10,904 nt of DNA from Pseudomonadota bacterium. GTDB taxonomy: Bacteria > Bdellovibrionota_C > UBA2361. A model generated the notes under the pieces. The model did no database searches. It saw only the letters and a list, made by a program, of their open reading frames with translations, and was not told where the DNA came from. Of this stretch, positions 1,251 through 10,904 are shown in pieces. The stretch's first letter is position 1. Each line of letters begins with the position of its first letter. Made by a program: the position numbers and the translations under genes. The stretch lies in NCBI GenBank assembly GCA_046047875.1, contig JBJOHD010000141.1:1-10904 (forward strand). The letters run 5' to 3'.

Positions 1251-1961
1251 TCAATCAGAGAGGTCCCGAGTCCCCTCATAAATATAAGCGATTCCGCCAC
1301 TCAAAGGGTCGTAGCGGGTAGCCGAAAACCCCGCCTCTCTGAGGATTACCTCGAAATCCCCCCCAGACGGGAACGCCTTGGCGGTTTCCGGAAGATAGGT
1401 GTACGCCGAGCGATTGCCTGTGAGAAGCCCCCCGATCCACGGCATCAACATCCTCGAGTACCAATTATAAACCGCTCGAAAGGGGGCCCACGTCGGCTGA
1501 CCGAATTCGAGGATGACGAGCTTTCCCCCCGGAGCGAGTACCCGGCGGATCTCTTTGAGCCCACGCCGGAGGTCTTCGAGGTTACGAACACCGAAGGCGA
1601 CCGTTACCGCCGTAAAGGTTCGATCGGGAAACGGCAGATTGAGCGCGTCGCACTGCACGAGAGGCGCAGCCGATCTCCCCCTCTCCCGCCCCCGCTCAAG
1701 CATCGGCAGACAAAAGTCGCCCCCCACCACACCGGTCACGCGACGCTCGAGAAGGGGCAAAAGATCGCCCGTTCCGGTGCACAGATCGAGCACCGGACCA
1801 GCACCGCGGGGCACCCGTCTCACCACCAGGTGTTTCCACAGATGATGAATCCCCAGGCTCAGTACCGAGTTAGTAAGATCGTACCGAGCGGCGATAGAGC
1901 CAAACATCCGTTGAACTTCGGAGCCAATAACCCGCGGAGTGGAGGTGGAAGAGGTTTCCAT
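1251..1961 (-). CDS. menG: Demethylmenaquinone / ubiquinone C-methyltransferase (UbiE/MenG family, class I SAM methyltransferase). The start is uncertain: ATG at 1959-1961, or GTG at 1995-1997 as in the ORF track.
   Basis: Translation shows UbiE/MenG hallmarks: FGSIAARYDLTN (the F..IA..YD.MN motif), LDLCTGTGD (the SAM-binding GxGxG motif), VRNLEDLRRGLKEIRRVLAPGGKLVILEF and GNRSAYTYL. Length is ~236-248 aa. TGA stop is at 1251-1253. Confidence 0.88.
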   Translation of the reverse strand: METSSTSTPRVIGSEVQRMFGSIAARYDLTNSVLSLGIHHLWKHLVVRRVPRGAGPVLDLCTGTGDLLPLLERRVTGVVGGDFCLPMLERGRERGRSAAPLVQCDALNLPFPDRTFTAVTVAFGVRNLEDLRRGLKEIRRVLAPGGKLVILEFGQPTWAPFRAVYNWYSRMLMPWIGGLLTGNRSAYTYLPETAKAFPSGGDFEVILREAGFSATRYDPLSGGIAYIYEGTRDLSD

Positions 1962-1997
1962 AAGGAGCTTATACAGGATCACGGGAAACGTTACCAC

Positions 1998-2078: not shown

Positions 2079-4538
2079 ATGGTTTCCGATCGCCTCCCCT
2101 CCCACGCCCGCGTCGTCGTCATCGGCGGGGGCATCATCGGCTGCTCGGTGGCGTATCATCTCGCCAAAATGGGCTGGAAGGATGTCGTCCTCCTTGAGCG
2201 CGACAAGATTACCTCCGGCACGACGTGGCACGCCGCGGGGCTTATGGTCACCTTCGGCTCAACCTCAGAGACCTCGACCGAGATCCGCAAATATTCGAAG
2301 AAGCTCTATCAAGAGCTGGAGCGCGAGACCGGCCAAGCCACCGGGTTTAAACCGGTAGGATTCATCGAAGTCGCAGCGGATGAGGATCGTCTTGAGGAAT
2401 ATCGCCGGGTCGCCGCCTTCAATCGATTTTGCGGGGTGGATGTGGCGGAGATATCCCCTGCCGAAATCTCAGCGCTCTTTCCATACGCTCAAGTCGACGA
2501 CCTTCTCGCCGGATTTTACGTCAAAGATGACGGGCGGGTGAACCCGGTCGATGTCACGATGGCTCTTGCCAAGGGGGCACGGCTTCACGGCGCGCAGATC
2601 CTCGAAGGGGTCCCGGTGAGCTCAGTCCTCCGTCACAACGGAGCCGTGACCGGAGTGGCTACCCCGCTCGGCGAGATACGGGCGGAATACGTGGTGAATT
2701 GCACCGGGATGTGGGCGCGACAGCTCGGCGAAGAGCTCGGTATCACCATCCCCAATCAAGCTGCGGAGCACTACTACCTTATTACCGACGATATCCCGGG
2801 GATCCCCCGAGATCTTCCAGTTCTGGAGGACCCCGCTTCGTACGGATACTACCGCGAAGAGGTCGGAGGGCTGATGATCGGGCTTTTCGAACCGGTTGCA
2901 GCACCGTGGAAACTTGAGGGCATCCCCAACGATTTTTCGTTCGGCGACCTTCCACCTGACTGGGATCGGATGACCCCCTTCCTTGAAAAGGCGATGGCGC
3001 GGGTGCCGGCCTCGCTGAGCGTCGGTATTCGGAAGTTTTTTTGCGGCCCCGAGAGCTTCACCCCTGATCTCCGACCGATAGTTGGCGAAGCTCCTGAGCT
3101 GAAGAACTACTTCGCAGCGGCCGGGATGAACTCGATCGGGATTCTGTCTGCGGGGGGGCTCGGTCGCGTGCTTGCACACTGGATCATAAACGGCGCTCCC
3201 GATGTAGATGTGACCGGTTTTAATATCGACCGCTTCCACCGTTATCAAGCGAACCGCGCCTATCGGCGTGAGCGAACGATCGAATCGCTCGGACTCGTCT
3301 ACAAATGCCACTATCCGACAAAGACCGCTGAGACCGCACGGGACGCAAAGCGTTCTCCGTTTCATGAGCGACTCAAAAAAGCCGGCGCATTCTTTCGAGA
3401 TGTGAGCGGCTGGGAGAGCCCCGACTGGTACGCCCCCTCTGGGAGCGACCCGCGGGTAGAGCGACTTTCATGGGGCCGGCAGAACTGGTTCCCGTACTGG
3501 GCCGCGGAGCACCGCGCCGCCCGCGAGGGAGCGATCATCATGGACATGAGCTTTATGTCGAAGTTTCTTGTTCAAGGGCGGGATGCGGGGCGGGTGCTCG
3601 ATTACGTCTCTGCAAATAAGGTAAACGGTCAGATCGGCGTTATTACCTACACCCAATGGCTGAACCATCACGGAAAGATCGAAGCCGACCTTACCGTAAC
3701 GAAGCTTGAGGAGGATCGTTTCTTGGTGGTGGTCACCGATACGATGCATCGGCACGCCGAGACCTGGCTCAAGCGACACATCCCCGAGAGCGCCCACGCC
3801 TTCGTGACCGATGTGACCTCCGGGTTTGCGCAGTTAAACGTACAAGGGCCGCGAGCACGCGAGCTTCTTCAGTCGCTTACCACCGCGGATCTCTCGAACG
3901 AAGCGTTTCCATTCCGAGCAGCTCGAGAGATCGACATCGGCTTCGCACGGGTACTGTGCATCCGTATCACCTATCTTGGAGAGCTGGGCTATGAGCTCTA
4001 CATCCCCGCCGAGCAGGCTGTGCATGTGTACGATCTCATCGTGGAGGCGGGTCAGCGGTTCGAACTCCGTCACGCCGGCCTCAAGGCGCTCTCCAGCCTC
4101 AGGATGGAGAAGGGTTACCGCGACTATGGACACGATATCGATAATACCGATGATCCGTTCGAGGCGGGGCTCGGATTTGCAGTGGATCTAAAACGCTCCG
4201 AAGATTTTATCGGTCGGGCGATGGCGGAACGATCCAAGGCCAACGCTCCCTACAAGCGGCGCCTCGCTCAGCTCCTCGTTCTCGATCCCACACCCCTTCT
4301 CTTTCACGCCGAAGTGGTCTTTCGAAACGGTGCGGCGGTCGGTTATGTGCGGGCGGGGTCGTACGGTCATACGCTCGGCGGTGCGGTCGGTCTTTTCATG
4401 ATCGAAGCAGGCGAGCCGATTAACCCAGCGTATATCGAGCAGGGTGCTTGGGAGGTTGAGGTCGCGGGGAAACGGTATCCGGCGCGGGTATCGTTGAAAC
4501 CGCTCTACGATCCCGAGATGCAGCGAATCAAAATGTAG
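2079..4538 (+). CDS. Dimethylglycine/sarcosine dehydrogenase-family enzyme: an N-terminal FAD-dependent oxidoreductase (DAO) domain fused to a C-terminal GcvT-like folate-binding aminomethyltransferase domain, ~819 aa.
   Basis: The N-terminus has a Rossmann FAD-binding motif, ARVVVIGGGIIGCSVAYHLAKMGWKDVVLLERDKITSGTTWHAAGLM. The C-terminal half has a GcvT-like region (YWAAEHRAAREGAIIMDMSFMSKFLVQG, LGELGYELYIP). The ORF-track start at 1830 overlaps menG on the opposite strand. The ATG at 2079 (alternative 2067) is preceded by GGAG and gives the ~10-residue lead-in to the GGG motif typical of the family. TAG stop is at 4536-4538. Confidence 0.9.
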   Translation: MVSDRLPSHARVVVIGGGIIGCSVAYHLAKMGWKDVVLLERDKITSGTTWHAAGLMVTFGSTSETSTEIRKYSKKLYQELERETGQATGFKPVGFIEVAADEDRLEEYRRVAAFNRFCGVDVAEISPAEISALFPYAQVDDLLAGFYVKDDGRVNPVDVTMALAKGARLHGAQILEGVPVSSVLRHNGAVTGVATPLGEIRAEYVVNCTGMWARQLGEELGITIPNQAAEHYYLITDDIPGIPRDLPVLEDPASYGYYREEVGGLMIGLFEPVAAPWKLEGIPNDFSFGDLPPDWDRMTPFLEKAMARVPASLSVGIRKFFCGPESFTPDLRPIVGEAPELKNYFAAAGMNSIGILSAGGLGRVLAHWIINGAPDVDVTGFNIDRFHRYQANRAYRRERTIESLGLVYKCHYPTKTAETARDAKRSPFHERLKKAGAFFRDVSGWESPDWYAPSGSDPRVERLSWGRQNWFPYWAAEHRAAREGAIIMDMSFMSKFLVQGRDAGRVLDYVSANKVNGQIGVITYTQWLNHHGKIEADLTVTKLEEDRFLVVVTDTMHRHAETWLKRHIPESAHAFVTDVTSGFAQLNVQGPRARELLQSLTTADLSNEAFPFRAAREIDIGFARVLCIRITYLGELGYELYIPAEQAVHVYDLIVEAGQRFELRHAGLKALSSLRMEKGYRDYGHDIDNTDDPFEAGLGFAVDLKRSEDFIGRAMAERSKANAPYKRRLAQLLVLDPTPLLFHAEVVFRNGAAVGYVRAGSYGHTLGGAVGLFMIEAGEPINPAYIEQGAWEVEVAGKRYPARVSLKPLYDPEMQRIKM

Positions 4539-4541
4539 CCG

Positions 4542-4916
4542 TCATGCGGCTCGCTCACGGGGGCCGCCCGGCGCCTGTTCACCACCCCGCATCACCACCT
4601 GAGTTGTATGGCGCTCTGGGGCCAGCCCCTGAAGGAGCACCTCAAGGGCTCGCTCGACCTCGCCCCCGCACATTAAAACATCGAAGCTCACGTACCCGTC
4701 CTCCGGCCATGAGTGGAGTGCCACATGGGACTCAGCGAGGAGCACGAACGTGGTCACCCCGTGCGGAGAAAATGTATGGGTCTTTGATTCGAGTACGGTG
4801 GCCCCTGCTGCCGCCGCGGCCTCACGTAAAAGCGCCTCGAGGCGGGGGGCCGAATTCGAGATCTCCGATGACACACCCCAACAATCGACCAAAATATGGC
4901 TCACACGCCGCTGCAT
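4542..4916 (-). CDS. speH: S-adenosylmethionine decarboxylase proenzyme, class 1 pyruvoyl-dependent (SpeH/SpeD-like), ~124 aa from the ATG at 4914-4916. The ORF track extends it to a TTG at 4995-4997.
   Basis: The diagnostic autoprocessing motif is VLLAESHVALHSWPEDGYVSFDVLMCGG, matching the AESH(I/L)(S/T)IH(T/S)(W/F)PE core of small bacterial AdoMetDC. The predicted pyruvoyl-forming Ser codon is at 4728-4730. N-terminus MQRRVSHILVDCWGV aligns with the MxxxGRHxxxELxGC start of Bacillus-type SpeH. The 27 extra codons back to the TTG have no homologous counterpart. Confidence 0.88.
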   Translation of the reverse strand: MQRRVSHILVDCWGVSSEISNSAPRLEALLREAAAAAGATVLESKTHTFSPHGVTTFVLLAESHVALHSWPEDGYVSFDVLMCGGEVERALEVLLQGLAPERHTTQVVMRGGEQAPGGPRERAA

Positions 4917-5061
4917 CGCCCGCTCACTTTGACGAGATATGAAAACTGATTGGAGCAAATACCCCTCTATGCTAGAAGTCTCTCTAACCGGAGACAAGGA
5001 GAATCAGCTCCAGCTCCACTTCTCGTGGCGTTTTCTAAACGATACTATTTTCGCAAGGCCT
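4917..5061. promoter_or_regulatory. 145-bp divergent control region between speH (minus) and the SPFH operon (plus). It contains the tandem direct repeat CAGCTCCAGCTCC (5005-5017), a TTGACG hexamer at 4929-4934, and AAGG at 5055-5058 just upstream of the ATG at 5062.
   Basis: This is the only sizeable non-coding gap in the right half. Both flanking genes start here and diverge. Hexamer matches are weak and no operator palindrome was identified. Confidence 0.35.
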
Positions 5062-6060
5062 ATGAGCATACTCGGTTTTATCGGCAAACAGTTTATCGAT
5101 GTCATTGAATGGACTGAGCCAGGTGACGGAATCCTCGCTTTTCGGTACCCGATGCGCGATCAGGAGATTCAAAATGGGGCCAAACTGACGGTGAGAGACA
5201 CTCAGGCTGCGCTCTTCGTCAACGAGGGCAGAGTAGCAGACCTCTTCGGCCCGGGACTTCACACCCTGACGACGAACACGCTGCCGATAATGACGAACCT
5301 GCAGAATTGGGATAAGGCCTTCGCCTCACCGTTTAAGTCCGATGTCTATTTCTTTAGCTCTCGGCTCCAACTCGACCAAAAATGGGGCACCGCTACACCT
5401 ATCACCGTCCGAGATAAGGAATTCGGGGTGCTCCGTATCCGAGCCTACGGGAACTTCTCATATCATGTAGCTGATCCGAAAACATTCTATCTCAAGGTAT
5501 CGGGCACCCGCGATGTCTTCCGAACAGCGGATCTCGATGGACAGCTGAAATCACAGGTAGCGACGGCGCTCGCGACGATGCTTGGGGCGAGCGACTGTGC
5601 CTTTATCGACATGGCAGCTAACCAAGCGAATTTCTCCGCCGCCCTCGGCGAGGCGGTTGCGCCGACCCTCACCCAATTCGGTCTCGCCCTTGATGGTTTT
5701 CAGGTTGAAAGTATCTCCCTGCCAGCGGAGCTCGAGAAGCGCCTCGACGAGCGCGCGATGGTCACGATGGTGGGCGGGCTGCGACAGTACGCCCAGTTTC
5801 AAGCGGCATCAAGTATTCCAGAAGCTGCAGCTAACCCAGGCGGGGTCGCCGGCGCCGGGGCTGGCATTGGTGCAGGTCTCGCGATGGGGCAGATGATGGC
5901 GCAGTCACTCGGAGTCGGCGCTCCCGGAGGCAGCGGAAGCGCCTCGCCAGGCGAGAATCCGCTCGAAACGATTGAGAAACTGCACGAACTTTTTAAGAAA
6001 GGCATGCTCTCCGAGAGTGAGTTCACCGCGAAGAAAGCGGATCTCCTCAAAAAGATATAA
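5062..6060 (+). CDS. SPFH/Band-7-like protein (Band_7_1-type, YdjI-like) with a Gly/Ala-rich linker and a C-terminal SHOCT-like oligomerisation domain, ~332 aa.
   Basis: N-terminus MSILGFIGKQFIDVIEWTEPGDGILAFRYPMRDQEIQNGAKLTVRDTQAALFVNEG matches the remembered start of Band_7_1 proteins (M..F.FIKKQFIDVIEW...YRYPM.D.EIQNGA.L.VRE.Q.ALFVNEG). The low-complexity stretch AAANPGGVAGAGAGIGAGLAMGQMMAQSLGVGAPGGSGSASPG lies at ~5821-5958. The C-terminus LETIEKLHELFKKGMLSESEFTAKKADLLKKI (5959-6057) fits the SHOCT pattern L..L..L...G.IS.EEF...K..LL. The ORF-track start at 4939 adds 41 residues with no counterpart and would leave only 22 bp to speH. Confidence 0.8.
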   Translation: MSILGFIGKQFIDVIEWTEPGDGILAFRYPMRDQEIQNGAKLTVRDTQAALFVNEGRVADLFGPGLHTLTTNTLPIMTNLQNWDKAFASPFKSDVYFFSSRLQLDQKWGTATPITVRDKEFGVLRIRAYGNFSYHVADPKTFYLKVSGTRDVFRTADLDGQLKSQVATALATMLGASDCAFIDMAANQANFSAALGEAVAPTLTQFGLALDGFQVESISLPAELEKRLDERAMVTMVGGLRQYAQFQAASSIPEAAANPGGVAGAGAGIGAGLAMGQMMAQSLGVGAPGGSGSASPGENPLETIEKLHELFKKGMLSESEFTAKKADLLKKI

Positions 6061-6066
6061 TCTCCG

Positions 6067-6690
6067 ATGCAACGCATACCGTGCCCACAGTGTGGTGCTG
6101 AGGTCGAGTTCACCTCGAGGTCCTCGGTTTTTTCGGTATGCCGCTACTGCTCGAGCACCCTGCTCCGAAGCAGCTTTGATGTACGTCTCCTCGGCCAGAT
6201 GGCCGCGCTTCATGAAGATCCGACCGTCTTTCAACTCGGCACTACCGGAGTTTACGACAACGACTCATTCGAGCTTATCGGCCGAGTACAAAGGCGCTGG
6301 TCGGGGGGGATGTGGAACGAATGGCATATGTTTTTCGGCGGCGAGAGAAGTGCGTGGCTGGCGGAGGCTCAGGGCTTCTTGATGGTAAGCTCGCTCCGGC
6401 CGGTCGCGGCGCCCGACGAATCCACACTTCGCATCGGCGCCCGAATCGATATCGACCGTGTCGTTTTCACGGTAAAAGATATCAAAGAGGTACTTGCAAG
6501 CTTCGCCGAGGGCGAGCTCCCCTTTGCTGCCGAGCAAGGGTCGAAGATGCGCAGCATCGACCTCACGGGACCGGGGCGCTTGGTGGCAACGCTCGGATAT
6601 AGCGAGGGCGGTGGCGAGGTATACATCGGCGAGATAGTCGAGTTCTCGGAACTTCAGTTTAAACGAATGCGGGAATTCAATGGCTCGTGA
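6067..6690 (+). CDS. Zinc-ribbon protein with a DUF4178-like body (YdjG-like), 207 aa.
   Basis: N-terminus MQRIPCPQCGAEVEFTSRSSVFSVCRYCSS carries a CxxC...CxxC C4 ribbon at codons 6, 9, 25 and 28 (nt ~6082-6153). The remainder is soluble with W-rich motifs (WSGGMWNEWHMFFGGERSAWLAEAQGFLMV) and is paralogous to the next gene. It lies 6 nt after the SPFH stop. Size falls in the range remembered for DUF4178 proteins. Confidence 0.7.
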   Translation: MQRIPCPQCGAEVEFTSRSSVFSVCRYCSSTLLRSSFDVRLLGQMAALHEDPTVFQLGTTGVYDNDSFELIGRVQRRWSGGMWNEWHMFFGGERSAWLAEAQGFLMVSSLRPVAAPDESTLRIGARIDIDRVVFTVKDIKEVLASFAEGELPFAAEQGSKMRSIDLTGPGRLVATLGYSEGGGEVYIGEIVEFSELQFKRMREFNGS

Positions 6691-7945
6691 ATCGCCGTTC
6701 ATAAAGCCCTTTCTCTGTCCCGCTTGTGGGGCGCCGCAGACCATCCGTGCGCTCGGCAAAACTATCGAATACAGCTGCACAAGCTGTGGCTCCCTCATCG
6801 ATATCACCGCGGAGCCGTTCTCAGTTCTCGCCGCCGCGGCGAACGCCCGTGCTCACGAACCGAAGATCCCCCTCGGCCAACGGGGAATGCTGCAGGGTAT
6901 CGCCTTTGAGTGCATCGGTTTCATGATCCGTACCGATCCCTCGCTACAATATCCGTGGGAGGAGTATCTTCTTTTTAATCCGTATCACGGATTTCGGTGG
7001 CTCATAACGATGAACGGTCATTGGAACTTTGTTACTCCGGTGTTCGGCCTCTCAGAGACACCGGAGGAGGACGTCTTAACCTACGAGGGACGAACGTACT
7101 CTATATTCTTAAGAGACTCCGCTATCGTACAGTACGTACAAGGTGAGTTCTACTGGCAGGTAAAGGTCGGCGACAGGGTCAACGTTCGGGAGTATATATC
7201 CCCGCCGTTTACACTTTCAGTCGAAGTGGATGAAAACGAACAGAACTTCGCCCACGCTGAGTATCTCCAGCATTCCGAGGTTGAAACCGCTTTCGCTCTG
7301 GAACCGAAGTCGCTACCGCAGCCGAGCGGGATCTTCCCGAATCAACCCTCACCCCATCTCCACAATCGCTTCTTTTACGTTATCGGCACCCTCGTGGTCC
7401 TCCCCCTTCTTTTCGTTATTCATTTCATGCTCCAGCGACCGCCCGAACCGGTCACCGCAGTGTCGGGCACCGCATTCCCCGGAACTTCTCCCTCCCCCCT
7501 AACGACAGAGACGGTTGAGTTTTTAGACCACGGAAACCTTGGATTTCTCCTGCAGAGTCCCGTTCTAAACTCATGGGTGGACGCAGAGATAGGGATAGTG
7601 AACGCCGACACCGGCGCCACCACCGAGACATCAGTGGGAGTTTCGTACTTCCACGGCCTCGAAAGCGGGGAGCGGTGGAGCGAGGGCTCAACAACAAGCG
7701 CCGTCACGGTGGGTGATATCCCGTCTGGTCGGTATTATTTTACCGTCCAAGCGACTAACGGAGCCTCGCCGTCTCAAAAAGCGCCTCAACCGTTCAGCCT
7801 CTCGATTAGACGACATGTTTCGTATTTGAGTAATTTATTCCTCGCGATTGTAGTAGCCTGTCTCCCCCTCGCCTTGAATCTCCTCCGAGGAATCAGCTTC
7901 GAAAGTCGGCGGTGGAATAATTCAACCGAAACAAACTCGGGTTAA
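6680..7945 (+). CDS. Zinc-ribbon / DUF4178-like paralog extended by two TM helices flanking a ~130-aa extracytoplasmic domain, 421 aa.
   Basis: C4 ribbon FLCPACGAPQ...YSCTSCGS at codons 13, 16, 33 and 36 (nt ~6716-6787). Residues ~75-200 parallel the upstream gene: FECIGFMIRT versus FELIGRVQRR, and YPWEEYLLFNPYHGFRWLITMNGHWNFV versus MWNEWHMFFGGERSAWLAEAQGFLMV. Hydrophobic helix FFYVIGTLVVLPLLFVIHFML spans ~7370-7432. A Ser/Thr/Gly-rich beta-looking domain spans 7433-7825. A second helix YLSNLFLAIVVACLPLALNLL spans ~7826-7885, followed by a short basic tail. The start overlaps the previous stop (ATGGCTCGTGA at 6680-6690). Confidence 0.7.
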   Translation: MARESPFIKPFLCPACGAPQTIRALGKTIEYSCTSCGSLIDITAEPFSVLAAAANARAHEPKIPLGQRGMLQGIAFECIGFMIRTDPSLQYPWEEYLLFNPYHGFRWLITMNGHWNFVTPVFGLSETPEEDVLTYEGRTYSIFLRDSAIVQYVQGEFYWQVKVGDRVNVREYISPPFTLSVEVDENEQNFAHAEYLQHSEVETAFALEPKSLPQPSGIFPNQPSPHLHNRFFYVIGTLVVLPLLFVIHFMLQRPPEPVTAVSGTAFPGTSPSPLTTETVEFLDHGNLGFLLQSPVLNSWVDAEIGIVNADTGATTETSVGVSYFHGLESGERWSEGSTTSAVTVGDIPSGRYYFTVQATNGASPSQKAPQPFSLSIRRHVSYLSNLFLAIVVACLPLALNLLRGISFESRRWNNSTETNSG

Positions 7946-7968
7946 GGAAGAGCGAGGAGGGTGAATCG

Positions 7969-8100
7969 ATGCGCGAATTCGTAGTGATAGTATGGATCGG
8001 AGTTGTCGTTTGGTTTGCTCAAGCGACGTATTACGAGAAGACGGCGCTCTCCCTTATGCCGAAGTTTTTTCGGACAGGCTCAGGTTTTCAACACAAATAG
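7969..8100 (+). CDS. Unannotated small membrane protein, 43 aa, single predicted TM helix.
   Basis: Strong Shine-Dalgarno GAGGAGG at 7954-7960, 8 nt before the ATG at 7969. Manual translation gives MREFVVIVWIGVVVWFAQATYYEKTALSLMPKFFRTGSGFQHK with a TAG stop at 8098-8100. It sits in the operon 23 nt after the previous stop and 20 nt before the next start. It is below the ORF-track size cut-off. Confidence 0.55.
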   Translation: MREFVVIVWIGVVVWFAQATYYEKTALSLMPKFFRTGSGFQHK

Positions 8101-8120
8101 GAAGTTAATCGGAGGAATTT

Positions 8121-8330
8121 ATGCTTAATTCATCGACGATGATCTCTTCGCTGGTTTACTCGCTGGTTGGAATGGTGACGTTCGTGTTCGGATTTTGGCT
8201 CTTCGACCGCCTCACCCCCTACAAACTTTGGGAAGAGATCGTTGAGCACAAGAATGTAGCGCTCGCAATCGTTGTCGGCGCCGGCGCTATCGCGCTTGGC
8301 CTGATCATCGGCTCGGCAATTCACGGATAG
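8121..8330 (+). CDS. DUF350-like small inner-membrane protein (YjfL-like), 69 aa, two TM segments.
   Basis: Sequence is MLNSSTMISSLVYSLVGMVTFVFGFWLFDRLTPYKLWEEIVEHKNVALAIVVGAGAIALGLIIGSAIHG. The central motif LTPY...EEI.E.KN.A.A between two hydrophobic helices is what I recall as the DUF350 signature. GGAGG SD at 8111-8115 lies 5 nt before the ATG. Confidence 0.7.
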   Translation: MLNSSTMISSLVYSLVGMVTFVFGFWLFDRLTPYKLWEEIVEHKNVALAIVVGAGAIALGLIIGSAIHG

Positions 8331-8338
8331 TTGAATCG

Positions 8339-9835
8339 ATGGACGCCGTTCTTCTCGCCTCGGTGTTTATCGTCGCTACGTGCGGACTCGTCTATGAGCT
8401 TGTCGCAGGAACGGTAGCAAGCTATCTTCTCGGCGATTCGGTCACCCAATTCTCGACTGTCATCGGGACCTACCTGTCAGCGATGGGTGTTGGGTCGTAC
8501 CTGGCGCAATTCGTGAAAAGGAGGCTCCTCGAAACTTTTGTTCGGATCGAGATCGTTCTGGCGCTTATCGGCGGAACTTCTGCGACCCTGCTCTTCCTCA
8601 CCTTCGAGTTCGTTACCTCGTTCCGTTTGGTTTTGTACGGACTCGTCTTCGTCATAGGGATGTTCGTTGGGCTGGAGATTCCCCTCTTGCTCCGAATCCT
8701 GCGAGACCGCATCGAGTTCAGCGCGCTGATATCCCGGGTGTTAAGCTTTGACTACCTCGGCGCTCTCGCGGCCAGCGTTCTCTTTCCCCTCATACTGGCC
8801 CCCCAGCTCGGACTTGTGCGAACAGCGTTCCTCTTCGGTCTGATGAATGCTGCGGTCGCGTTATGGGTGCTGGCGGTGCTGGGTGACCGACTTCCCTCTC
8901 GCCGTGCGCTCGCCGCCTCAGCTTGGGTAGTCTTTGCGCTGCTTCTTGGAGGGTTCATCGGTTCGAATTCCTTGGTGGCATTCGCCGAGGCGGGGATTTA
9001 CGCAGACCCGGTTATCTATGCTAAAACCACTCCGTACCAGCGGATCATCCTCACTAACTCCCCCCGGGAGACTAAGCTTTTTCTCAACGGAGCTCTCCAA
9101 TTTAGTTCGCGTGACGAATATCGATATCATGAGGCGCTCGTCCATCCTGGCTTAAGCGCGATTAAAGACCCCCGACGGGTGCTGATCTTGGGCGGAGGCG
9201 ATGGCCTCGCCGCCCGGGAGGTGCTGCGCTACCCCACGGTTGAGGCGATCGTGCTCGTCGACCTCGACCCGGCGATTACCGACCTCTTTCGCTCAAGCGA
9301 ACTCCCTCGCTCCCTTAACGACGACGCCTTAAATTCTCCGAAGGTCACTGTGATTAACGCGGATGCCTTCCGCTGGCTCAAGGAGTATAACGGCCCCTCG
9401 TTTGACTTCATTATCGTCGACTTCCCCGACCCTACTAATTTCTCCCTCGGAAAACTCTATACAACAACTTTCTACCGTTCGGTAAAACGGGTAATGGGGC
9501 CTCAGAGCCGTGGCGTGATTCAAAGCACCTCACCGCTTCTCGCTCGACGCTCCTTTTGGTGCATCCACAATACCGTGGCATCGATCGGAGTCACTACCCT
9601 CCCCTATCACGTCTATCTTCCCTCGTTTGGCGAGTGGGGCTTCGTTCTTTTTACCTCCGATCCCAGTCCCTTTTCCCCCACTTTTCCCCCGAACCTCCGC
9701 TTCATCGACGCCGAAACTTTCTCGGTGATGCGCCGCTTCGCGCCCGATATGTCGCAGCTTCAAACTGAGATAAATCGTCTCGATAATCAGATCCTGGTCT
9801 CATATTACGAGAACGAGTGGTCGGAGTACTTATGA
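8339..9835 (+). CDS. speE: Membrane-anchored polyamine aminopropyltransferase: spermidine/spermine-synthase catalytic domain fused to an N-terminal ~210-aa polytopic membrane domain, 498 aa.
   Basis: The C-terminal half carries SpeE catalytic motifs: RVLILGGGDGLAAREVLRY (GGGDG at ~9191-9205) and DFIIVDFPDPTNFSLGKLYT (~9404-9433, the D..D.P amine-binding segment), plus PYQRIILTNSP near the domain start. The N-terminal 8339-~8975 encodes ~7 hydrophobic helices (for example IVLALIGGTSATLLFLTFEFV and VLFPLILAPQLGLVRTAFLFGLMNAAVALWVLAVLG). It starts 8 nt after the DUF350 stop. Confidence 0.85.
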   Translation: MDAVLLASVFIVATCGLVYELVAGTVASYLLGDSVTQFSTVIGTYLSAMGVGSYLAQFVKRRLLETFVRIEIVLALIGGTSATLLFLTFEFVTSFRLVLYGLVFVIGMFVGLEIPLLLRILRDRIEFSALISRVLSFDYLGALAASVLFPLILAPQLGLVRTAFLFGLMNAAVALWVLAVLGDRLPSRRALAASAWVVFALLLGGFIGSNSLVAFAEAGIYADPVIYAKTTPYQRIILTNSPRETKLFLNGALQFSSRDEYRYHEALVHPGLSAIKDPRRVLILGGGDGLAAREVLRYPTVEAIVLVDLDPAITDLFRSSELPRSLNDDALNSPKVTVINADAFRWLKEYNGPSFDFIIVDFPDPTNFSLGKLYTTTFYRSVKRVMGPQSRGVIQSTSPLLARRSFWCIHNTVASIGVTTLPYHVYLPSFGEWGFVLFTSDPSPFSPTFPPNLRFIDAETFSVMRRFAPDMSQLQTEINRLDNQILVSYYENEWSEYL

Positions 9836-10904
9836 GCGGTACACCGTTCTCCCGTCGTCGTTTCATCGCAGGGGGACTCGGTTCGCTCGCCGCTTTCAGC
9901 GGCGTAACGAGGCTGAACAGCTCTGAGGTGCCGGTGGTTCCGAGTGTCATCCACGGTGCGACACACCGGGTGGGGCACCTTCTCAGATCGGTTACGCCGC
10001 TCCCGCCCCCGTCGACTCGCCGCAGCACCCGAGTGGCTATCGTCGGAGGCGGTATCGCCGGGTTATCAGCTGGATGGTGGTTATCCCGCAATGGCTTTCA
10101 CGACTACATCGTTCTGGAACTTGAGGATGCTCTGGGGGGAACTGCGCTAAGCGGTGAGAATTCGATAACACCCTTCCCCTGGGGTGCCCACTATGTGCCG
10201 ACACCCGGCAAAGATGCTCGCTACGTCCGAACTTTCTTTGAAGAGATCGGTGCGATTACAGGCTACGACGACTCCGGCGAACCGACCTACGATGAATTGA
10301 TGCTATGCGGCGCTCCCGAGGCCCGTCTTTTCATCCACGGTCGATGGCAAGAGGGGCTTCTTCCCGCAACCGGACTCGCTCACCGAGACTCGGCTGAGCA
10401 GGCGAGATTCTTCGCCCTGCTTGACCGGTTTCGTAGTGCGATCGGTTCTGACGGACGACCCGCATTCACGATACCGGCTCATCTATCCTCCCGCGATCCT
10501 GAGTACCGTCGGTTTGATAGCATCACCTTTGCTGAACTGATGCGGCAGTGGGGACTCTCCTCTCCTTATTTAAATTGGTATATCGACTACTGCTTCCGCG
10601 ATGACTTCGGTGCCCTCAGCACACGTATATCTGCCTGGGCCGGACTGCATTACTTCTGCGCTCGGAGCGCTACAGGGTCGAACGGGCGGGAGCTCCTTCT
10701 CACCTGGCCGGAGGGAAATGGATTCCTCGTAAAGGAACTCCGGCGCCGAATCAGCGGGGAGATACTCACGCAAACACTCGTTACGGGGATAATCCCGACG
10801 AAAAATGGGGTCGCAGTCGAGTTCCTCGACCTGAAGAGAAGCTCCCGGGGAGCGCTTGATGTTGAGGCAGTAGTCTACGCTGCTCCGCGATTCACCGCTC
10901 CGTT
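9832..10904 (+). CDS. Tat-signal FAD-dependent oxidoreductase (amine-oxidase-like), partial: C-terminus off the window, ≥357 aa.
   Basis: The ATG at 9832 overlaps the speE-like TGA (ATGA). GGAG lies 5 nt upstream. The N-terminus MSGTPFSRRRFIAGGLGSLAAFSG is a twin-arginine (S-R-R-x-F-L/I) signal followed by an h-region. The dinucleotide-binding motif RVAIVGGGIAGLSAGWWLSRNGFHDYIVLELEDALGG (~10036-10140) is typical of FAD amine oxidases and renalase-like proteins. The frame stays open to the window end. Confidence 0.75.
   Translation, partial: MSGTPFSRRRFIAGGLGSLAAFSGVTRLNSSEVPVVPSVIHGATHRVGHLLRSVTPLPPPSTRRSTRVAIVGGGIAGLSAGWWLSRNGFHDYIVLELEDALGGTALSGENSITPFPWGAHYVPTPGKDARYVRTFFEEIGAITGYDDSGEPTYDELMLCGAPEARLFIHGRWQEGLLPATGLAHRDSAEQARFFALLDRFRSAIGSDGRPAFTIPAHLSSRDPEYRRFDSITFAELMRQWGLSSPYLNWYIDYCFRDDFGALSTRISAWAGLHYFCARSATGSNGRELLLTWPEGNGFLVKELRRRISGEILTQTLVTGIIPTKNGVAVEFLDLKRSSRGALDVEAVVYAAPRFTAP

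Follow-up and report, generated by a model that had tools for sequence, protein, structure and literature searches.

This locus raises the question of why enzymes of polyamine-type chemistry should be encoded among membrane-scaffold proteins, and whether all of these products serve one process. The window (the whole stretch of DNA that was analysed, 10,904 nucleotides, from a MAG from Pseudomonadota) contains a tightly packed cluster in which speH is divergent from a seven-gene operon. In order, the operon encodes an SPFH-SHOCT protein, two zinc-ribbon DUF4178 proteins, a 43-aa microprotein, a DUF350 protein, a seven-transmembrane (7TM)-aminopropyltransferase, and a flavoprotein with a Tat signal. 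We lean towards the view that this is a widespread bacterial envelope cluster, in which SpeH, the membrane aminopropyltransferase, the exported flavoprotein, and the scaffold or sensor proteins act jointly. Two earlier papers describe this cluster, and the window is one more copy of it. Its features are as follows.

4542–4916, minus strand: speH, class 1b pyruvoyl S-adenosylmethionine (AdoMet) decarboxylase proenzyme, 124 aa from Met28 (PF02675, TIGR03330)
4917–5061, no strand: divergent intergenic region, as given by the corrected starts; presumed promoter region in both directions
5062–6060, plus strand: SPFH/Band-7 protein of the Band_7_1 type, 332 aa from Met42, with a linker rich in Gly and Ala and SHOCT at its C-terminus (PF13421, PF01145, PF09851)
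6067–6690, plus strand: zinc-ribbon and DUF4178 protein 1, soluble, 207 aa (PF13785, 44.4 bits)
6680–7945, plus strand: zinc-ribbon and DUF4178 protein 2, 421 aa (PF13785, 60.1 bits; weak Zn_Ribbon_TF match)
7969–8100, plus strand: microprotein gene, 43 aa, with one N-terminal transmembrane helix and the tail ...FQHK (ORF listing and conserved slot)
8121–8330, plus strand: DUF350 (YjfL-family) two-helix membrane protein, 69 aa (PF03994, 63 bits)
8339–9835, plus strand: 7TM-aminopropyltransferase fusion, NCBIfam PRK03612 (NF002956, PF01564, AlphaFold2)
9832–10904, plus strand: flavin amine-oxidase-like protein with a Tat signal, first 357 aa present, 3'-truncated (PF13450, PF01593)

Within the operon, intergenic gaps are 6–23 nt and two pairs of genes overlap: the gene for DUF4178 protein 2 shares 11 nt with the preceding gene, and the aminopropyltransferase stop and flavoprotein start overlap as ATGA. 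The longest open reading frame of speH extends to 4997 and that of the SPFH gene begins at 4939. The true starts are likely Met28 of SpeH (4916) and Met42 of the SPFH protein (5062), which match gene calls of 122 aa and 330 aa, respectively, in a syntenic relative, L086; with these starts, the two genes do not overlap and lie ~145 bp apart. A scan of 4917–5061 for the sigma-70 consensus gave nothing above shuffle expectation. The flavoprotein gene is interrupted by the contig end, so that downstream content is outside view, and this copy of the cluster lacks its 3' end only. All genes named in an earlier, sequence-only reading of this DNA were recovered at or near the positions it gave, with scores above curated cut-offs; the divergent arrangement that it described is borne out by gene positions and strands, and the translational coupling of aminopropyltransferase and flavoprotein by the ATGA overlap.

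SpeH scored 109 bits against PF02675 (AdoMet_dc) and 107.5 bits against the equivalog TIGR03330 (cut-off, 75.65). Aligned to T. maritima 1TLU and Aquifex 2III, it retains the Glu-Ser self-cleavage site, His68, and Cys83, and the Glu-Ser and His are invariant in 40/40 operon-linked SpeH sequences. Judged by its sequence, the window SpeH is an AdoMet decarboxylase (AdoMetDC) with its catalytic residues intact, as the earlier reading presupposed. A point against our reading is that AdoMetDC homologues can neofunctionalise to arginine or ornithine decarboxylases (PMC10407285).

The fusion comprises a seven-transmembrane domain (residues 2–207) and an aminopropyltransferase domain of the spermidine-synthase fold (about 225–498), and scored 650.9 bits against NF002956/PRK03612 (cut-off, 472) and 123 bits against PF01564 (Spermine_synth). 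Its AlphaFold2 model has a mean pLDDT of 88.4 and seven transmembrane helices. The top sequence and fold matches, over residues 224–447, were Thermus thermophilus SpeE (1UIR, 3ANX), which is a triamine/agmatine aminopropyltransferase, a plant thermospermine synthase (6BQ2), and Pyrobaculum SpeE (7XIF), with a Foldseek E-value of about 1e-15 for 1UIR, 6BQ2, and 7XIF. The motifs YHE, GGG(D/E)G, and D-x-x-D-P are common to these proteins and the fusion, whereas the former are soluble, lack a membrane domain, have known polyamine substrates, and are 26–30% identical to the fusion. YRYHE, GGGDG, D310, D342, and D361-x-P-D364-P are invariant in 55 homologues, and the motifs align with those of T. 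thermophilus SpeE; the dcAdoMet-binding and catalytic residues expected of a SpeE-type enzyme are therefore intact. The further claim that the system makes a polyamine is weakened in its ordinary sense, since portions of PMC12803844 report experiments that exclude the bacterial fusion proteins from spermidine or spermine biosynthesis. The same membrane-protein/APT-like architecture occurs in a fungal fusion, the "spermine synthase" of Pyricularia oryzae, a eukaryotic protein encoded outside any operon; according to the same portions, which dispute the part in making spermine that had been reported for it, its sole non-fungal homologues are the bacterial fusion proteins (PMC12803844).

The flavoprotein (MSGTPFSRRRFIAGG...), whose full-length homologues are about 540 aa, scored 43.6 bits against PF13450 (NAD_binding_8) and 26.6 bits against PF01593 (Amino_oxidase; cut-off, 19.8). 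Its N-terminus reads FSRRRFIAGG, and a twin-arginine (Tat-type) motif is present in 45/59 full-length homologues, often followed by a lipobox-like Cys, in agreement with the export signal that had been proposed for this FAD enzyme. A conserved G-x-I-x-G-A-x(4)-G-H-x-L-R segment precedes the FAD site in the operon flavoproteins. The AlphaFold2 model of a homologue, P0124 (pLDDT 89.8), had monoamine oxidases, putrescine oxidase, and the spermidine dehydrogenase SpdH as its best fold matches, with an E-value of about 1e-24 and a query-normalised TM-score of about 0.64 against amine oxidases (Foldseek). MAO A/B, Rhodococcus putrescine oxidase, and Pseudomonas SpdH have the two-domain FAD amine-oxidase fold in common with the operon flavoprotein, which differs from them in its Tat signal, the frequent lipobox Cys, and the extra conserved segment. 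Two observations count against our reading: identity to characterised amine oxidases is 15–19%, and protoporphyrinogen oxidase is also among the fold matches, so that the amine substrate class is putative.

The SPFH protein scored 239.9 bits against PF13421 (Band_7_1) and 56 bits against PF01145, and its SHOCT domain scored 30.3 bits against PF09851 (cut-off, 27); a hydropathy scan found no transmembrane segments in it. Both DUF4178 proteins begin with a CxxC...CxxC ribbon at the N-terminus (CPQCG...CRYCS in protein 1). Protein 2, the orthologues of which are 420–480 aa, has two transmembrane helices (233–251 and 387–405 in the hydropathy scan), predicted to bracket a domain of ~135 aa outside the cytoplasm. 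Two transmembrane segments are also predicted in the DUF350 protein, whose match covers half of PF03994 (positions 3–66 of the 133-position model).

The fusion protein occurs in at least 598 species-level genomes, and synteny was counted in 49 species-level loci from many phyla with enough flanking DNA. The order and strand of the DUF4178, DUF350, aminopropyltransferase, and flavoprotein genes are kept in 43 of these loci, a linkage far beyond chance across so many phyla. The slot of DUF4178 protein 1 is kept, or fused to the next gene, in 43/49 loci, and the DUF350 gene is immediately 5' of the aminopropyltransferase gene in 43/49. SpeH lies within 10 kb in 34/49 loci (on the same strand in 32 of the 34), and an SPFH gene is upstream in 22/49. 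The gene-order conservation and co-occurrence within 10 kb that the sequence-only reading anticipated were thus observed; the absence of SpeH within 10 kb in about 30% of the loci counts against our reading. The core order is repeated in Pfam-labelled neighbourhoods of Bacteroidota, Verrucomicrobiota, and Bdellovibrionota, and the entire window layout in a 76%-identical relative. PspA had no matches across the 85 loci fetched (L001–L085), and neither PspA nor CesT/Tir is encoded in the window itself.

Li, Kurihara, Kim, Liang, and Michael reportedly described, in 2019, gene clusters, widespread in bacteria, in which a membrane-protein/SpdSyn-like fusion accompanies AdoMetDC and DUF350, and reportedly showed that the bacterial fusions make neither spermidine nor spermine. 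The AdoMetDC of those clusters is of class 1b, as in the window, and the fusion likewise joins a membrane domain at the N-terminus to a spermidine-synthase-like domain at the C-terminus, with the DUF350 gene clustered alongside. Ravi et al. (2024; PMC11237479), who credit the AdoMetDC linkage to Li et al. (2019; Biochem J 476:2579), report in the portions of their paper available to us operons that combine DUF350 and DUF4178 with a 7TM spermine-synthase-like protein, and a Band-7/SHOCT variant with AdoMetDC and a polyamine oxidase; the membrane domain is called "transporter-like". The suggestion that the unit was functionally undescribed must therefore be withdrawn. According to these portions, the linked genes that such operons have in common with the window are those for the 7TM-aminopropyltransferase, DUF350, DUF4178, Band-7 with SHOCT, AdoMet decarboxylase, and "polyamine oxidase". 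The published Band-7 variant is reported to have two transmembrane helices before SHOCT, whereas the window SPFH protein has none. PspA-CesT/Tir operons, for example Shewanella oneidensis SO_3765, are described there as containing the 7TM spermine-synthase-like, YjfL/DUF350, and DUF4178 proteins (PMC11237479); the window analysis turned up neither the Ctha_1186 lipoprotein nor the RHH regulator that belong to the Shewanella type. In the available portions of the published operon descriptions, we found no mention of the Tat motif, the His-Lys microprotein, or the positive-inside pattern.

Like the window, the membrane-stress operon pspA-ydjGHI (samGHI) of Bacillus subtilis encodes zinc-ribbon membrane proteins and an SPFH protein, YdjI, which we take to be a PF13421 member like the window SPFH protein; unlike the window, it is without polyamine enzymes. 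YdjI connects PspA with the membrane (PMC8581546; PMC10936438). The parallel drawn earlier with E. coli yjfIJKLMC, where DUF350 (YjfL), a polyamine-type enzyme, and a membrane-stress scaffold occur together as in the window, holds: passages of PMC11237479 report a PspA/CesT dyad, an ATP-grasp glutathionylspermidine-synthetase-like ligase, and YjfL/DUF350 at this locus, and treat it as a third group with the same theme. Its enzyme is that ligase and not an aminopropyltransferase, its scaffold is PspA/CesT and not SPFH, and those passages make no mention of an AdoMetDC or exported flavoprotein.

Under the reading that we favour, cytoplasmic SpeH would convert AdoMet to dcAdoMet, and the 7TM-aminopropyltransferase, at the inner membrane, would pass its aminopropyl moiety on to an acceptor amine. 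This acceptor would not be putrescine, to judge from a second-hand and partial account of published experiments on bacterial homologues. The flavoprotein would be loaded with FAD in the cytoplasm, exported by Tat, and would oxidise the product or a related amine at the periplasmic face. The SPFH-SHOCT protein, two DUF4178 proteins, His-Lys microprotein, and DUF350 protein would form a membrane scaffold or sensor part, a role that the PspA-CesT/Tir dyad may fill in other lineages.

The topology of the fusion bears on this scheme. With the seven helices of the AlphaFold2 model, the chain starts on one side of the membrane and has its catalytic domain on the other, and mean Lys+Arg is 7.5 in loops 2-3, 4-5, and 6-7 vs 2.1 in loops 1-2, 3-4, and 5-6, with the bias in the same direction in 85/85 homologues. 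By the charge rule and this predicted model only, the aminopropyltransferase domain is predicted to face the periplasm, which conflicts with simple access to cytoplasmic dcAdoMet and so counts against our reading. It is possible, though we give the idea limited credence, that the chemistry is instead extracytoplasmic: the aminopropyltransferase domain and flavoprotein would both be periplasmic, the seven-helix domain with its acidic intramembrane residues would pass dcAdoMet across, and the acceptor would be an envelope component or the microprotein. Besides the topology, the export and translational coupling of the flavoprotein, the predicted outside domain of DUF4178 protein 2, and the membrane-domain residues E20, D33, E113, and D138, invariant in the 55 homologues, point in this direction. 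However, dcAdoMet synthesis is cytoplasmic, the topology comes from a rule and a prediction, similarity to MFS transporters is weak (3/55 members), the orientation of the microprotein is ambiguous, and no enzyme that depends on AdoMet or dcAdoMet is known to us to work outside the cytoplasm. Unlikely in our judgement is an MprF-like modification, in which a cytoplasmic domain would aminopropylate an amine lipid (e.g., phosphatidylethanolamine), the seven helices would flip the lipid outward, and the flavoprotein would remove or remodel the modification. The analogy is with MprF/AcvB, AcvB being a periplasmic hydrolase that acts on lysyl-phosphatidylglycerol, and it suits the highly conserved fusion of a polytopic membrane domain to a C-terminal transferase with an exported partner enzyme encoded directly 3'. 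The charge-rule topology argues against it by predicting a periplasmic catalytic domain, as does the retention of both D-x-x-D-P active-site aspartates, which in spermidine synthases help to bind a diamine-type acceptor. The operon linkage of membrane-remodelling scaffold proteins, in the available text of PMC11237479 and PMC8581546, would also fit a lipid substrate.

We think it quite improbable that SpeH works with a membrane-anchored SpeE simply to supply the cell at large with spermidine or some longer polyamine, next to unrelated neighbours. The NCBI family name is "polyamine aminopropyltransferase", the fusion has the full catalytic residue set of true aminopropyltransferases, and the nearest solved relatives are triamine/agmatine and thermospermine synthases; yet the bacterial fusions are reported as uninvolved in spermidine or spermine biosynthesis and the aminopropyltransferase-like domain of the fungal homologue yielded neither polyamine in E. 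coli (portions of PMC12803844), and housekeeping synthesis would not be expected to be tied so strictly, in 43/49 loci, to an exported oxidase and to DUF350 and DUF4178. Very little credence attaches to polyamine uptake and catabolism, whereby the seven-helix domain would import or sense polyamines, the flavoprotein would degrade them, and the aminopropyltransferase domain would be a ligand-binding regulator. Such a role would accord with a flavoprotein fold nearest putrescine oxidase, bacterial monoamine oxidase, and spermidine dehydrogenase, and with the "transporter-like" label given in part of PMC11237479, but full conservation of catalytic and dcAdoMet-binding residues argues for catalysis, and 34/49 loci show an operon-level link to the enzyme that produces dcAdoMet.

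The microprotein gene is the seventh gene of the operon and was absent from the sequence-only reading. Its slot holds a 43–60 aa open reading frame with a transmembrane helix and a tail of His-Lys-stop in 54/64 loci, against a background in which only 0.8% of short open reading frames in the surveyed loci end in His-Lys-stop. In L086, the microprotein is annotated as a gene, and the His-Lys is retained there even though its codons have changed synonymously and the stop codon differs.

All of the genes named in the sequence-only reading are present in the window, as judged from the ORF list together with Pfam and NCBIfam scans. The window spans a whole 10,904-bp contig, which belongs to a metagenome-assembled genome (MAG) with the label Pseudomonadota bacterium, and its genes are arranged as follows.

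Genes of the window (coordinates, strand, description)
1251-1997, minus strand: UbiE/MenG-type methyltransferase gene, upstream
~2080-4538, plus strand: DAO-FAO_M-GcvT gene, dimethylglycine/sarcosine-dehydrogenase-like, convergent with speH, 3 nt between the stop codons
4542-4916, minus strand: speH, class 1b AdoMet decarboxylase proenzyme (PF02675, TIGR03330)
5062-6060, plus strand: Band_7_1-type SPFH protein, SHOCT domain at the C-terminus (Pfam scan)
6067-6690, plus strand: soluble zinc-ribbon/DUF4178 protein (Pfam scan)
6680-7945, plus strand: second zinc-ribbon/DUF4178 protein, with two transmembrane helices (Pfam scan and helices)
7969-8100, plus strand: 43-aa microprotein (ORF list)
8121-8330, plus strand: two-helix DUF350 protein (Pfam scan)
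8339-9835, plus strand: 498-aa 7TM-aminopropyltransferase, a fusion of membrane and spermine-synthase domains (Pfam/NCBIfam)
9832 to contig end, plus strand: flavoprotein with NAD_binding_8/Amino_oxidase matches (Pfam scan)

The operon lies on the plus strand, divergent from speH, with 6-23 nt between genes and two overlaps in the ORF list; the stop codon of the aminopropyltransferase gene and the start codon of the flavoprotein gene overlap as ATGA. When the longest ORFs are taken, speH (start 4997) and the SPFH gene (start 4939) overlap head to head. Based on alignments, and on the 122-aa and 330-aa gene calls in L086, a syntenic close relative, the true starts are most likely Met28 of SpeH and Met42 of the SPFH protein, so that the divergent genes would be ~145 bp apart (4917-5061), with no overlap. 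A promoter scan gave 3 promoter-like sites (2.7 expected), and a scan for terminator-like sites gave 10, all of them weak (6.1 ± 2.1 expected); these counts were uninformative. L086, which is 76% identical, has the layout of the window throughout, with the UbiE and DAO-GcvT genes also upstream. Synteny of these two genes was found in L086 only, and they are missing from the Pfam-labelled gene lists of five other fetched loci (L001, L002, L004, L005, and L087). They were therefore left out of the system, and are probably unrelated to it.

In 2019, Li and colleagues reportedly found a class 1b AdoMet decarboxylase (AdoMetDC) accompanied by a membrane-protein/SpdSyn-like fusion in thousands of genomes, clustered with DUF350. 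Organisms with the fusion cluster are said to lack spermidine, and the fusion protein is said not to complement an E. coli speE mutant. The cluster is also treated by Ravi et al. 2024 (PMC11237479), a paper that cites Li et al. 2019 and describes Shewanella oneidensis operon genes together with a PspA-CesT/Tir dyad. The suggestion in the sequence-only reading that the gene set appeared functionally undescribed is thus overturned by its publication in 2019 and 2024. The functional sketch offered there agrees with proposals made by specialists, and the E. coli yjf theme raised in it corresponds to a group around a glutathionylspermidine-synthetase-like ATP-grasp enzyme (PMC11237479). As in the published cluster (Li 2019; Ravi 2024), the window has a seven-helix domain N-terminal to the spermine-synthase-like domain, and DUF350 and DUF4178 within the operon. 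It also has the elements of a variant outlined by Ravi et al., in which a Band-7 plus SHOCT protein replaces PspA-CesT/Tir and is accompanied by AdoMetDC and a polyamine-oxidase-like gene. However, the Band-7 protein of that variant, as described there, carries two transmembrane helices before the SHOCT domain, which the window SPFH protein does not. We conclude that the window holds a further member of a cluster already described, whose biochemical role is still open. In the literature, we found no functional work beyond Li 2019 and Ravi 2024 on DUF350, DUF4178, membrane aminopropyltransferases, or mycobacterial Rv2597-Rv2601.

The phage-shock-protein (Psp) system in the strict sense has a PspA/IM30/ESCRT-III protein, whereas Pfam and NCBIfam scans matched none of the window proteins to this family. 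A phmmer search with E. coli PspA, for which the query was approximate and the sensitivity limited, likewise gave no match in the 85 loci L001-L085. In B. subtilis, the SPFH analogue YdjI tethers PspA to the membrane (PMC8581546). A role in anti-phage defence was also considered, and was rejected because PADLOC returned only mad2 (a generic methyltransferase fold, 55.8 bits) and a FAD-motif match.

Database homologues of the fusion protein number more than 8,000, with 52-60% identity across phyla among the matches listed, which argues for a strongly selected function. A scan with one genome per species identified at least 598 species-level carriers, from which 80 loci were drawn and annotated with iterative profiles that started from proteins of the window. 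These loci came from Alpha-, Beta-, Gamma-, and Deltaproteobacteria, Verrucomicrobiota, Acidobacteriota, Bacteroidota, Melainabacteria, Nitrospirota, Nitrospinota, Leptospiraceae, and others. Among the cultivable carriers are Asticcacaulis benevestitus, Labrys okinawensis, Pleomorphomonas oryzae, Pedobacter spp., and Dechloromonas sp. ARDL1. Flanking DNA of at least 4.5 kb on the upstream side and 3.5 kb on the downstream side was available for 49 loci, and 43 of these preserve the succession DUF4178, DUF350, aminopropyltransferase, and flavoprotein, with all four genes on one strand. Gene order is therefore kept across phyla, contrary to what would have refuted the sequence-only reading, and this synteny rules out chance adjacency. 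The core order is repeated, under independent Pfam labels, in Pontibacter, a Verrucomicrobiaceae MAG, and a Bdellovibrionaceae MAG. SpeH lies within 10 kb in 34/49 loci, in 32 of them on the operon strand (before DUF4178 or after the flavoprotein) and in 2 of the 34 divergent, as in the window, and an SPFH gene is found in 22/49. In the remaining 6/49 loci (L009, L016, L027, L030, L061, and L070), the aminopropyltransferase stands alone, with no DUF350, DUF4178, or flavoprotein nearby; several shorter loci (e.g., L007 and L011) are similar. As a rule, these lone aminopropyltransferases are longer proteins (520-570 aa, judged from the longest ORF).

The window fusion protein scored 650.9 bits against NF002956/PRK03612 (cut-off 472) over residues 2-497, and therefore falls in an existing named family. 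Its DEYRYHE and GGGDG motifs, D310, D342, and D361-F-P-D364-P match the motifs of T. thermophilus SpeE upon alignment, and the dcAdoMet-binding or catalytic residues Y263-H264-E265, G285-G289 (GGGDG), D310, D342, D361, and D364 do not vary among 55 homologues. The protein as modelled by AlphaFold2 (mean pLDDT 88.4) has seven transmembrane helices (residues 2-31, 34-56, 63-89, 95-122, 127-157, 159-184, and 188-207), with which the hydropathy profile agrees, followed by a spermidine-synthase fold that includes the N-terminal beta-hairpin domain. Foldseek matched the model to 1UIR, 6BQ2, 7XIF, and 1INL, with target-normalised TM-scores of 0.72-0.81, the best structural matches being T. thermophilus triamine/agmatine aminopropyltransferase, plant thermospermine synthase, and Pyrobaculum SpeE. 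The likeness of the membrane domain to MFS transporters is too weak to use: MFS_1 matched the window protein at E = 0.0058 (16 bits, below the cut-off of 33.4), 3/55 homologues only had MFS matches at E <= 0.1, and the score against NF037959 ('fused MFS/spermidine synthase') was 18.9 bits, below its cut-off of 40.

SpeH scored 109.2 bits against PF02675 (cut-off 25) and 107.5 bits against the equivalog TIGR03330 (cut-off 75.65). When its segment LLAESHVALHSWPE...LMCGG was aligned to those of T. maritima 1TLU and Aquifex 2III, the Glu-Ser self-cleavage site (S63 in T. maritima), His68, and Cys83 were all found to be kept. By family and residues, the window SpeH belongs with the class 1b pyruvoyl AdoMet decarboxylases, and AdoMet is its presumed substrate. 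The SpeE-like and SpeH-like proteins thus both have intact catalytic residues, the absence of which had been named as grounds for abandoning the sequence-only reading. Among 40 operon-linked SpeH sequences (that of the window and 39 from related loci), the Glu, Ser, and His are kept in all, and the catalytic Cys (C83 in T. maritima) in 28, including that of the window. The other 12 have Ser in place of C83 (motif FLSNY), while retaining the Glu-Ser site and the His; they come from L021, L023, L029, L031, L033, L039, L042, L052, L058, L079, L081, and L082, which are Bacteroidota wherever the taxon is named. The change may indicate altered chemistry or activity in these proteins. Neofunctionalised AdoMetDC relatives, SpeDA/SpeDC, act on arginine or ornithine rather than AdoMet, according to PMC10407285.

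Only the first 357 residues of the flavoprotein are held in the window. This fragment scored 43.6 bits against PF13450 and 26.6 bits against PF01593 (cut-off 19.8), and full-length homologues scored 38.9-49.8 bits against PF01593 across all 443 model positions (1-443). The best NCBIfam match was partial (PigB, 61 bits against a cut-off of 850). In sequence comparisons of full-length homologues with solved structures, matches were limited to the FAD-binding N-terminus, and we therefore turned to structure prediction. For this we took a full-length homologue with 48% identity, whose predicted structure (pLDDT 89.8) was nearest to monoamine oxidases A/B, Rhodococcus putrescine oxidase, a bacterial monoamine oxidase whose solved structure contains putrescine, cyclohexylamine oxidase, and Pseudomonas spermidine dehydrogenase (Foldseek E ~1e-24, TM-score ~0.64, identity 15-19%), with protoporphyrinogen oxidase lower among the matches. 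Given these fold matches and identities, the description 'amine-oxidase-like' is justified at the level of the fold only.

The flavoprotein carries a signal motif of the twin-arginine translocation (Tat) type. Its N-terminus contains FSRRRFIAGG, and the signal region, FSRRRFIAGGLGSLAAF, has an S/T-R-R-x-F-L-K-like motif and a hydrophobic stretch. A twin-arginine motif precedes the FAD site in 45 of 59 full-length homologues from the fetched loci, often with a lipobox-like Cys after it, and we regard putative export of the flavoprotein as a trait conserved in the system, judging from these signal sequences. The text of Ravi et al. 2024 (PMC11237479) available to us makes no mention of the twin-arginine signal. 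A single Arg occurs in the signal of the Melainabacteria (Obscuribacterales) proteins and a few other homologues. The SRxxFLK form was noted in L024, L028, L041, L044, L051, and L084, which are Obscuribacterales and one unclassified isolate (L044), and continued use of Tat by the Obscuribacterales flavoprotein is questionable on this basis.

Between the second DUF4178 gene and DUF350 lies a 43-aa ORF (7969-8100, plus strand) preceded by a Shine-Dalgarno sequence. The encoded microprotein, MREFVVIVWIGVVVWFAQATYYEKTALSLMPKFFRTGSGFQHK, combines a single transmembrane helix with a tail that finishes in FQHK. An ORF of 43-60 aa takes up this position in 54 of 64 loci, across phyla, each with one transmembrane helix, a Gly/Ser/His-rich tail, and a His-Lys-stop end. 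By comparison, 0.8% of all short ORFs of those loci end in His-Lys, the true cases counted in. The L086 orthologue keeps His-Lys despite synonymous codon changes and a different stop codon. Pfam and NCBIfam scans matched no family model to the microprotein, and a profile built from its relatives gave a marginal score against the window sequence (E = 0.009, in a one-sequence search space), so the case for homology is based on position, architecture, and the C-terminal His-Lys. We speculate that the C-terminal lysine could be a ligand, or even an aminopropyl acceptor.

The orientation of the fusion protein was assessed from the charges in its loops. In the membrane domain (8339-8960 in the window), the mean number of Lys plus Arg is 7.5 in loops 2-3, 4-5, and 6-7, as opposed to 2.1 in loops 1-2, 3-4, and 5-6, and the bias runs in the same direction in 85/85 homologues (L001-L085). 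An odd number of helices, seven, would put the N-terminus and the catalytic domain on opposite sides of the membrane, and the positive-inside rule would therefore place the N-terminus in the cytoplasm and the aminopropyltransferase domain in the periplasm. The catalytic domain is thereby predicted to share its side of the membrane with the invariant GDSVTQFST loop and the Tat-signal flavoprotein.

Several explanations could account for these features. Bacterial fusion proteins of this kind have been reported to be uninvolved in spermidine or spermine synthesis (PMC12803844, citing Li 2019), so that decarboxylated AdoMet (dcAdoMet) would be spent on some other acceptor at the cell envelope. In the explanation that we favour, SpeH would supply dcAdoMet, the fusion protein would move the aminopropyl group to a non-putrescine acceptor at the inner membrane, and the Tat-signal flavoprotein would act from the periplasm as an oxidase of the product or of a related amine. 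The SPFH-SHOCT, DUF4178, and DUF350 proteins and the microprotein would make up a scaffold or sensor at the membrane, in the part that the PspA-CesT dyad plays in sister operons. Ordinary polyamine synthesis, to which the spermidine-synthase fold and complete active site might point, appears quite improbable beside the reports on spermidine and spermine. We consider polyamine uptake with catabolism, which would draw on the amine-oxidase-like fold next to a membrane protein, to be highly improbable for a cluster that so often includes SpeH.

The main rival is that aminopropylation takes place outside the cytoplasm. The loop charges and the exported flavoprotein speak for it, but such a location is unexpected for an enzyme using dcAdoMet, which is cytoplasmic. 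Since the periplasmic placement is based on a charge rule and a predicted model, we do not regard it as the best explanation, and hold it to be possible but doubtful. An extended form, in which a periplasmic aminopropyltransferase domain sits beside the Tat-exported flavoprotein, the seven-helix domain carries dcAdoMet across the membrane, and the aminopropyl group goes to an envelope molecule or to the microprotein's invariant C-terminal lysine, seems to us unlikely. An MprF-like modification of lipid head groups, with a periplasmic enzyme removing the group, would also bring together a multi-helix enzyme and an exported partner, and is in our judgement distinctly unlikely. If the periplasmic reading were true, it would be, to our knowledge, the first transfer of an AdoMet-derived group outside the cytoplasm, and an acceptor lysine in the microprotein would possibly be a new post-translational modification.

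Knowing the acceptor would reveal a new use of dcAdoMet, give DUF350 and DUF4178 a function, and explain the recurrent link of polyamine-type enzymes to PspA/SPFH membrane-maintenance modules. The window itself contributes one more member of a described class. The Tat signal, the predicted outward-facing catalytic domain, and the conserved His-Lys microprotein, none of which is mentioned in the literature on the cluster in so far as its text was available, make the question experimentally testable, the last two being leads worth testing.

There are no NCBIfam models for the SPFH, DUF4178, DUF350, microprotein, and downstream His-rich proteins. The last of these is a multi-pass membrane protein of ~365 aa with conserved histidines, encoded directly after the flavoprotein gene in 32 loci (e.g., L001 13366-14451 and L005 5684-6766). 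It has the motifs DVxHVxST, HFxRQQYGF, NVVSHGIPY, and THYxLDGFIW, and matched nothing in Pfam or NCBIfam; the window contig ends before the position of this gene. A single fused protein of 630-740 aa replaces the DUF4178 pair of the window in Verrucomicrobiota, in several Betaproteobacteria, and at a few loci from other phyla (L002, L013, L026, L039, L045, L048, L053, L055-L057, L059, L065, L068, L069, L074, L079, L080, and L085). Finally, in Solitalea agri (L029, ~6400-10000), the DUF4178-microprotein-DUF350 module is duplicated in tandem before a single aminopropyltransferase gene.
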